Both the position numbers and the translations under genes were made by a program. Below the pieces are notes generated by a model, which was not told the DNA's origin, did no database searches, and saw only the letters and a list, made by a program, of their open reading frames with translations. Positions 13-352 of a stretch of 352 bases of DNA are shown here, piece after piece (position 1 is the stretch's first letter; each line of letters begins with the position of its first letter). The DNA is taken from NCBI RefSeq assembly GCF_003334255.1, contig NZ_QOWU01000256.1; one strand, given 5' to 3'. The DNA is from Escherichia coli. GTDB taxonomy: Bacteria; Pseudomonadota; Gammaproteobacteria; Enterobacterales; Enterobacteriaceae.

Positions 13-153
13 CTACTGCTTACACTGTAAGAACGCCGCAAACTCCGCTCCCCACAAATTCAGCCGGAACTCACACAACGAGCCGTGTAACATCCAGATG
101 GTGAAGATTACCGTCATACAAATTGTGACGGTGATGAGCGATTTTTGCGACAT
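13..153 (-). CDS. hok: Hok/Gef-family type I toxin, small inner-membrane protein, 46 aa (HokA-like)
   Basis: Minus-strand ATG at 153..151 and TAG stop at 15..13. An in-frame TAG lies 10 codons upstream (183..181) with no other start between, so the start is unambiguous. AGGAG Shine-Dalgarno (plus 163..167) sits 9 nt upstream of the ATG. Translation: MSQKSLITVTICMTVIFTIWMLHGSLCEFRLNLWGAEFAAFLQCKQ. Short polar N-terminus (MSQK), an ~18-residue hydrophobic segment, then a tail with the SLCE and AAFL.CK motifs characteristic of Hok/Gef proteins. Family assignment is from recalled HokA/HokE sequences, not a database search. Symbol is family-level only; the paralog is not assigned. Confidence 0.85.
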   Translation of the reverse strand: MSQKSLITVTICMTVIFTIWMLHGSLCEFRLNLWGAEFAAFLQCKQ

Positions 154-256
154 AACGCTTGTCTCCTGAGTGGAGAGGCGCTAACCTACTACTTGTGAAG
201 GTTGTACGGTCAGGGCCTCGGGTTAACATTAAAGTTGACTCGGGGCCTTTCCACAT
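71..256 (-). CDS. mok: mok-like overlapping reading frame (61 aa), probable translational-coupling ORF, not an independent protein
   Basis: The ORF from the supplied track (MWKGPESTLMLTRGPDRTTFTSSRLAPLHSGDKRYVAKIAHHRHNL...). It starts 103 nt upstream of the hok ATG, runs across the hok Shine-Dalgarno and start, and ends at TGA 73..71 inside hok in a different frame. This is the arrangement known for mok in plasmid R1 hok/sok. Its His/Arg/Thr-rich sequence has no recognisable fold. Start is uncertain: a GAAGG lies only 4 nt before the ATG at 256, and an alternative in-frame ATG exists at 229..227. Confidence 0.45.
   Translation of the reverse strand: MWKGPESTLMLTRGPDRTTFTSSRLAPLHSGDKRYVAKIAHHRHNLYDGNLHHLDVTRLVV
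159..187 (+). promoter_or_regulatory. Candidate sigma70 promoter for a Sok-like antisense RNA
   Basis: Plus strand: -35-like TTGTCT (159..164), 17-nt spacer (165..181), -10-like TAACCT (182..187) with T at position 1, A at 2 and T at 6. Predicted start around 191..195. The -35 overlaps the hok Shine-Dalgarno region on the opposite strand, as I recall for the Sok promoter in R1. Hexamers are moderate matches only. Confidence 0.4.
163..167 (-). promoter_or_regulatory. Shine-Dalgarno (ribosome-binding site) of hok
   Basis: Minus-strand AGGAG (plus-strand ctcct at 163..167) with a 9-nt spacer to the hok ATG at 153. Confidence 0.6.
194..252 (+). ncRNA. sok: Candidate Sok-like cis-encoded antisense RNA (type I antitoxin), about 57-60 nt
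   Basis: Lies between the candidate promoter (159..187) and a stem-loop plus TTT (214..250). Predicted architecture is a roughly 20-nt unstructured 5' tail (194..213) followed by a single 3' hairpin. It is fully complementary to the mok/hok mRNA from 4 nt downstream of the mok ATG to about 60 nt further on. Size and layout resemble Sok of plasmid R1 (about 64 nt). Ends are approximate. Confidence 0.4.
214..252 (+). terminator. Stem-loop with short U-run; putative intrinsic terminator and structural domain of the antisense RNA
   Basis: Plus-strand 214..227 (GGCCTCGGGTTAAC) pairs with 234..247 (GTTGACTCGGGGCC): 14 bp, 11 Watson-Crick plus 3 G-U wobbles (218/243, 221/240, 224/237), 6-nt loop ATTAAA (228..233), followed by TTTCC (248..252). 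On the minus-strand transcript the three wobbles become A-C mismatches. The U-run is only 3 nt, so termination efficiency is uncertain. Confidence 0.35.
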
Positions 257-306
257 CAGGCCTTCAGGTTCTCCCTCCAGCCATCAGCCGAAAGGCACCC
301 GCGCAT

Positions 307-335
307 AATCTACGATTTTTGCCCTGCACGGGCAA
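307..335 (-). promoter_or_regulatory. Candidate promoter for the mok/hok mRNA
   Basis: Minus strand: -35-like TTGCCC (revcomp of plus 330..335), 17-nt spacer, -10-like TAGATT (revcomp of plus 307..312). Predicted start near plus 300, giving an mRNA beginning GGGUGCCUUUCGGC... about 44 nt upstream of the mok ATG. Weak hexamers; the true promoter could lie beyond the right edge. Confidence 0.3.
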
Positions 336-336
336 C

Positions 337-352
337 AAAAAACCCGCCATCA
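337..352 (-). terminator. Possible 3' arm and T-tract of an intrinsic terminator for an upstream minus-strand gene, truncated by the window edge
   Basis: Minus strand reads ...TGATGGCGGG TTTTTTGTT: a GC-rich segment (plus 343..348) followed by a T6 tract (plus 337..342). The matching 5' arm would lie beyond position 352 and is not visible. Confidence 0.2.

Follow-up and report, generated by a model that had tools for sequence, protein, structure and literature searches.

The hok/sok (parB) system of plasmid R1 consists of a Hok/Gef toxin gene, an upstream reading frame that overlaps it, and the antisense RNA Sok, which has its own promoter (TTGCGC-N17-TATCCT) and a long terminator hairpin. 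The hok mRNA starts with a G behind a weak promoter whose -10 element occupies -12 to -7 (TGGTCA-18-TATGAT-6-G(+1), a sequence that was recovered here at 100% identity from p1658/97). The full-length R1 transcript is about 398 nt long, compared with about 353 nt for the mRNA described below. Its 5' end forms a hairpin in the nascent transcript and carries the tac element, which pairs with either the 3' fbi box or the ucb box. Closure of the molecule by tac/fbi pairing is a hallmark that defines full-length hok mRNAs, and substitutions at -12, -11 and -7 of the R1 hok -10 element, found as suppressor mutations, abolish function (PMC9841398). In E. coli K-12, the chromosomal hokA gene, which is split by IS150 (loci L073 and L074 of our collection), shows the arrangement TAGAAT-6-GGGTGCTTGAG, with an mRNA beginning GGGTGC, and the terminator of glyS, the gene upstream, lies about 100 nt before its promoter. 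On lambdoid prophages, hok has a functional precedent in hokW/sokW of the Stx2 prophage Sp5, for which the native promoter was not mapped (PMC8621323). Phage morons, such as lom of phage lambda, possess their own promoter and terminator, are found at the edges of late operons and are expressed from the repressed prophage (PMC3594210), and in an LF82 lysogen the genes whose transcription greatly exceeds the prophage background include a prophage hok gene (PMC9928086).

A type I toxin-antitoxin module of the hok/sok type is encoded on the minus strand of the 352-nt stretch of E. coli DNA analysed here (referred to as the window). Each of the elements listed above for R1 has a counterpart at this locus, the mRNA start, its pairings, and Sok with its promoter, which is analogous in layout to that of R1, being predicted. 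The two systems nevertheless differ in that the Hok proteins share 30% identity, the R1 gene resides on a plasmid and the present one on a prophage, and the R1 hok promoter, unlike the present one, has no terminator directly upstream. The resemblance to the chromosomal hokA gene extends to the same -10 to +1 geometry and a nearly identical mRNA 5' end, although at the prophage locus the upstream terminator abuts the -35 element. Positions 297-352 of the minus strand very probably represent the terminator of lom abutting the promoter of hok, that is, the point at which two accessory units with separate transcription meet at the end of the tail region of a lambdoid prophage. A lom gene that brings its terminator and, behind it, a hok gene that brings its promoter agree with the moron pattern, the term moron being understood as an organisational concept and not as a sequence family. 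The published literature on hok, lom and morons supplied general context; mapped 5' or 3' transcript ends for this locus or its close relatives were not found there, including by full-text search with the 5' sequence and its complement.

The hok/sok module and its distribution

The coding and antisense elements of the module are as follows.

13..153, minus strand: hok toxin gene, 46 aa, Hok/Gef family, HokA-like (Pfam PF01848; RefSeq WP_000078907.1)
71..256, minus strand: mok-like frame of 61 codons overlapping hok, start codon uncertain (ORF list; frame retained in diverged loci)
159..187, plus strand: predicted Sok promoter, with -35 TTGTCT at 159-164, a 17-nt spacer and -10 TAACCT at 182-187 (conservation)
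195..252, plus strand: predicted Sok antisense RNA, with a 5' recognition region that varies and, after it, a long terminator hairpin that does not (-28.6 kcal/mol)

Assignment of the toxin to the Hok/Gef family was based on a match of residues 8-44 to the Pfam model PF01848 (HOK_GEF; E = 4.7e-8). The best NCBIfam match, NF007290 (HokA), reached 38.4 bits against a curated equivalog cutoff of 89, and the protein is thus HokA-like but not HokA. Identity with the published hokW/sokW was also considered and rejected, as HokW has 51 aa and the published primers encode the termini MKQQKAM...DYESEK, whereas the present protein begins MSQKSLITV. The mok-like frame, of a kind that hok translation depends on in the hok/sok scheme, opens at mRNA position +45, next to the ucb box and upstream of the Sok target, compared with a start at about +116 for R1 mok. 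Two further open reading frames, one of 28 codons on the minus strand (350..264) and one on the plus strand (159..308), both of which span promoter and leader elements and are without support, were regarded as spurious.

The TTG and TAACCT motifs of the predicted Sok promoter were kept in all 30 sequence variants compared, giving the pattern TTGnCT-N17-TAACCT. Among the same variants, the predicted 5' recognition region of Sok (195-210, plus strand) was hypervariable while being flanked by the invariant promoter and terminator hairpin, which would fit a diversification of antisense specificity among co-resident copies.

Among 5,426 complete E. coli genomes, 1,551 contain sequence 80-99% identical to the window, as do 198 phage records, many of which come from Stx-converting phages; the annotation in those records is 'Hok/Gef family protein' at most. 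The locus is an ordinary, textbook arrangement, its family is well known, and at the level of genes it has already been catalogued. For comparative purposes, use was made of a viral contig containing the exact window (L004, in which window position x corresponds to 1757-x), of an E. coli locus with a 99.4% identical copy (L001), and of 69 viral loci that were collected with the 61-aa overlapping frame as the query and then anchored on the leader.

Several of these loci showed rearranged copies. Complete hok/sok modules occur as tandem pairs, with a separation of about 470 nt, in L017 (968-1340 and 1438-1743) and also in L030, L031 and L066; all four are P2-like prophage contigs in which the modules directly follow a D/Ogr-like gene pair, and the first of the two promoters in L017 overlaps the Ogr-like ORF at its end. 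In L071, an ORF for a 362-aa transposase-like protein on the opposite strand (1552-2640) interrupts the hok module about 95 nt into the mRNA, and this copy is probably inactivated in the same way as K-12 hokA. In L008, the promoter and the first part of the leader (183-252) lie about 1.2 kb away from the remainder of the module (1494-1813), which suggests an insertion in the leader.

A predicted intrinsic terminator behind the upstream lom gene

The elements located at the right edge of the window, all on the minus strand, are listed below.

354-361 (window-equivalent, 2-9 nt past the edge), minus strand: 5' arm of the terminator, AACCCGCU (L004 sequence)
349-353, minus strand: terminator loop (fold)
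341..348, minus strand: 3' arm of the terminator, GGCGGGUU (terminator scan on L001, fold, arm in L004)
337..342, minus strand: U-tract TTTTTT, followed by G and then TT, ending 1 nt short of the -35 hexamer
330..335, minus strand: -35 element TTGCCC of the hok promoter, its TTG kept at this position in all contexts examined
319..335, minus strand: perfect inverted repeat TTGCCC-GTGCA-GGGCAA over the -35 element and spacer (second predicted hairpin)
307..312, minus strand: -10 element TAGATT (TAnnnT), 17 nt past the -35 element and 6 nt before G300

The initial annotation, made from the window alone, had interpreted GGCGGG (348-343) followed by TTTTTT (342-337) as the 3' half of an intrinsic terminator. 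Both strings occur at these positions, and the complementary arm that such a terminator demands beyond position 352 was located in L004, where AACCCGCU occupies the window-equivalent positions 361-354 and the minus strand around position 352 reads ...TTCTGAtctgtatccgacaacatgtcatAACCCGCTG/TGATGGCGGGTTTTTTGTTGCCC. The resulting hairpin is AACCCGCU-GUGAU-GGCGGGUU followed by the U-tract. A terminator scan of L001 called AACCCGCTGTGATGGCGGGTT+TTTTGTT, and the 41-nt stretch containing the hairpin folded at -15.5 kcal/mol (z = -3.1) with an 8-bp stem. With a stem of 8-9 bp containing 5-6 G:C pairs, a loop of 3-5 nt and UUUUUUGUU directly behind it, and with its location past a stop codon, the element has the make-up of an intrinsic terminator. 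The hairpin begins 22 nt past the stop codon of the upstream gene, which encodes an Ail/Lom family outer-membrane protein according to RefSeq and whose copy in L004 matches Rck/OmpX models. Since the complementary arm is present beyond position 352 and lies 22 nt past the Ail/Lom stop codon, the interpretation as the 3' half of a terminator was upheld, and the terminator was assigned to the neighbouring gene. Further upstream on the same strand, RefSeq annotates tail-tip fibre genes, so that the tail genes, lom and hok are all co-oriented. In scans of the window alone, no terminator was called and no promoter was called at a threshold of 9/12; given the weakness of the promoter and the truncation of the terminator at the window edge, these scans carried no information.

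The lom unit would accordingly be predicted to end in a Rho-independent terminator of which the 3' arm and U-tract (348-337) lie inside the window and the 5' arm outside. A terminator acting on the plus strand or in both directions was also considered for 297-352 and rejected, as neither of the two hairpins is followed by a T-run on that strand; no functional element was predicted on the plus strand of this segment.

Relation of the terminator to the hok module

The initial annotation had further suggested that the combination of terminator and promoter insulates the module from read-through of the neighbouring gene. If transcription terminates at the U-tract and initiates at G300, both of which are predicted from the sequence, then hok would be insulated from lom transcription in the lysogen, and as a functional reading for the lysogenic state the suggestion appears reasonable. 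As a built-in property of the module it could not be maintained. While the terminator was present in all 49 loci with the lom context, no terminator was found within about 230 nt upstream of the module in 8 other contexts, and L017 has one at -76 only. As 8 contexts do without an upstream terminator, insulation is not a requirement of the module, and the terminator mostly belongs to lom and is no fixed component of the hok module.

It was also possible that the terminator is instead the integral, mobile left end of the hok cassette, serving as a built-in insulator, and is not the terminator of lom at all. In its favour, a closely similar hairpin is seen in L071 and L044, P2-like prophages in which the module is located downstream of ogr and a terminator (AAACCGGC...GGCCGG-T6-R-TTG; L071 1396-1420) abuts the hok -35 element, with the same 1-nt junction as in the lom context and a compensatory C:G to G:C swap in the stem. 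The two hairpins may be homologous or convergent. However, the BLAST match to L071 and L044 does not begin until the transcription start, any GC-rich stems with a T-run behind them tend to look alike, and a mobile left end is at odds with the 8 contexts in which no terminator lies within about 230 nt and with L017, where the only one lies at -76. A terminator that moves with the cassette in some lineages was therefore retained, in view of the resemblance between the ogr-context and lom-context hairpins, as a minority explanation that is unlikely overall; assignment of the terminator to lom is preferred.

A further idea concerns the fate of the insulation after prophage induction. In lambdoid prophages, hok directly follows the co-oriented tail and lom genes, and in P2-like prophages it directly follows the co-oriented D/ogr; the terminator is fused to the -35 element in both. 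Insulation by the terminator would fail against the Q-antiterminated late transcription known from phage lambda, if that biology applies to this prophage. It is conceivable, though rather improbable, that the terminator insulates hok only in the lysogen and that late transcription reads into hok after induction, coupling Hok output to the lytic switch, as has been reported phenomenologically for hokW. Such read-through would yield 5'-extended hok transcripts with tac in an internal position, and the hok promoter could be occluded. In a weaker form of the same idea, the terminator would simply travel with the cassette as its built-in insulator.

The hok promoter and predicted transcription start

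Immediately past the U-tract, the minus strand reads TTGCCC (335-330), a 17-nt spacer (329-313), TAGATT (312-307), 6 nt and G300, exactly as initially annotated. Both sigma-70 hexamers are recognisable, their spacing falls within 17 +/- 1 and the predicted start lies within 6-8 nt of the -10 element, but the score is weak: compared with TTGACA/TATAAT, the hexamers match at 8 of 12 positions (4/6 each). An equally good pair was obtained in 56% of dinucleotide shuffles of the window, with a mean of 0.79 pairs per shuffle. As the consensus match alone was not above chance, the verdict on the promoter rests on sequence outside the window.

Promoters of the collected loci were compared by anchoring on +1, as a MAFFT alignment mis-registered R1 and the contexts with an 18-nt spacer. 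The pattern TTGnnn-16/18-TAnnnT-6/7-GGGTGCC was found to be kept in at least 10 contexts with unrelated sequence upstream of about -36, examples being TTGCCG-17-TACAGT, TTGAAA-18-TAGAAT, TTGCGC-17-TACATT and TTGGCG-16-TAAACT. By eye, TAnnnT was retained in every context, and an automatic pick recovered it in 12 of the 13 promoter variants tabulated. The presence of the same geometry in at least 10 independent contexts, as well as in K-12 hokA and R1 hok, indicates that TTGCCC-N17-TAGATT is the conserved promoter of the module.

The elements of the mRNA 5' region are the following.

300, minus strand: predicted transcription start +1 (G) of the hok mRNA (Rfam model start; fbi complementarity; 7 nt past the last -10 base)
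284..300, minus strand: tac element, 5' end GGGUGCCUUUCGGCUGA (folds of 44, 64 and 355 nt; consensus structure)
242..252, minus strand: ucb box GGAAAGGCCCC, pairing with tac in the truncated active form (fold, consensus structure, Rfam structure line)

The Rfam model RF01794 aligned over its full length (model positions 1-157) to 300..142 of the minus strand, with model position 1 falling on window position 300, at a score of 35.8 bits (E = 1.1e-6) that does not reach the gathering threshold of 59 bits; the match is a diverged relative of the seed sequences. Although named 'sok antitoxin', this model describes the mRNA leader and not the antisense strand, since the match lies on the hok-mRNA strand, where the consensus extends from the 5' end of the hok mRNA to the hok AUG.

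A second line of evidence was provided by the 3' fbi box, GYCGAWAWGGCACCC, which was conserved in every context and in which GGCACCC is exactly complementary to +1 to +7. The boundaries of homology are in agreement with this. Copies in the lom context were homologous throughout the extended locus by BLAST, whereas in the other contexts BLAST homology began 1-21 nt upstream of G300 and ended at, or at most 5 nt past, the 3' box. By eye, the similarity of these other contexts extends to the -35 element, and homology stops just upstream of it. With three independent lines, namely the promoter geometry, the start of the Rfam model, and the fbi complementarity together with the homology boundary, pointing to the same place, the 5' end would lie at or next to G300, as had been proposed, and the weak promoter TTGCCC-17-TAGATT is predicted to start the hok mRNA at or within about a base of this position.

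The leader had been noted to be shorter than that of R1, raising the possibility that the real promoter lies outside the window. From +1 to the hok AUG the leader spans 147 nt, compared with 173 nt in R1, a difference of 26 nt. Because the leader is genuinely shorter than that of R1, no promoter outside the window is needed to account for its length, and over about 400 nt of upstream sequence the promoter scan called nothing stronger on the minus strand.

These observations also bear on the possibility that TTGCCC/TAGATT is a chance match and that the hok mRNA is instead produced by transcription running in from lom or the phage late operon, or by an outside promoter, with its 5' end beyond position 352. 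The 8/12 match, the ease with which shuffled sequences produce an equal pair, the failure of the window scan to call a promoter and the co-orientation of the tail genes, lom and hok would all be compatible with such an origin. It would not, however, account for the conservation of hexamers and spacing behind entirely different upstream genes, nor for the fact that homology and tac/fbi complementarity both begin at G300; moreover, a good intrinsic terminator separates lom from hok, and no better minus-strand promoter exists upstream. A chance match was consequently judged highly improbable, and TTGCCC/TAGATT is retained as the hok promoter.

The inverted repeat that covers the -35 element and spacer (335-319) was kept only in lom-context copies, where the 2 arm substitutions seen were transitions, and is probably incidental. 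That it is instead an operator placing the hok promoter under repressor control in this prophage lineage seems very improbable, since, despite its perfect 6-bp arms centred on the -35 element and spacer and its retention in the lom-context variants with only transitions in the arms, by our own estimate chance would produce a repeat of this arm length at about the 5-10% level in a region of this size, it is missing from all other contexts that keep the same promoter, and we know of no operator consensus that fits TTGCCC-N5-GGGCAA. The heptamer GTGCAGG of the repeat also occurs in the R1 hok promoter, at nearly the same position (1-nt offset).

Predicted structures of the mRNA 5' end

An mRNA starting at G300 would begin GGGUGCCUUUCGGC. 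For its tac element, three alternative partners were predicted, namely positions 273-282, which give the hairpin of the nascent transcript, the ucb box at 242-251, and the 3' fbi box outside the window. Folding of the first 44 nt yielded a 10-bp hairpin in which nt 6-15 pair with nt 19-28 (-16.7 kcal/mol), corresponding to the transient structure of the nascent R1 transcript. When the first 64 nt were folded, this was replaced by a tac/ucb stem pairing nt 1-11 with nt 50-59 (-32.4 kcal/mol, z = -4.3), which was also the consensus structure over 14 variants, with 0 compensatory pairs. In the minimum-free-energy fold of 355 nt (-150.8 kcal/mol, z = -5.3), nt 1-7 and 10-17 pair with the 3' GCCGAUAUGGCACCC region, the molecule being closed by GGGUGCC:GGCACCC and UCGGCUGA:UCAGCCGA. 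Changes in tac and fbi across contexts were mostly wobble-compatible, with two giving mismatches. As no compensatory pairs were present in the consensus fold, support for the tac/ucb/fbi stems consists of conservation and energy and not of covariation.

A small 3-bp hairpin, GCC-UUUC-GGC, had initially been assigned to the 5' end of the mRNA. While possible on paper, it was absent from every predicted minimum-free-energy or consensus structure. It cannot form in L071 and L044, where the 5' end, GCCUUCGAC, reads GCC-UUC-GAC, whereas by our own reading the longer 5' hairpin is kept there through a G:C to A:U change.

Taken in the order of synthesis, these folds suggest that the first 11-17 nt of the hok mRNA constitute tac, which in the growing transcript would initially pair with the sequence just downstream of it. 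Once the mRNA has reached its full length of about 353 nt, tac would pair with the 3' fbi box to give an inert form, and 3' trimming would allow it to pair with ucb, giving a translatable form that can be bound by Sok.

The fbi box was also found to contain the annotated ATG of a downstream coding sequence, WP_000035556.1 (L001 position 2956, window-equivalent -44; GATATGGCACCC). A second ATG in the same frame, 8 codons further on, is served by a better Shine-Dalgarno sequence (GGTGAGAGA), and the annotated start may be too long or, alternatively, the tac/fbi stem may sequester the start codon.

Implications

The importance of these results beyond annotation is small, and no concept is changed by them. 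They do, however, define the left end of a hok/sok module that is widespread among prophages, with its promoter at 335-307 and its start at about position 300, and indicate that the toxin is organised as a separate transcription unit following the lom terminator. Knowledge of this boundary should be useful for the design of reporter and deletion constructs and for the reading of RNA-seq data over Stx and lambdoid prophages.
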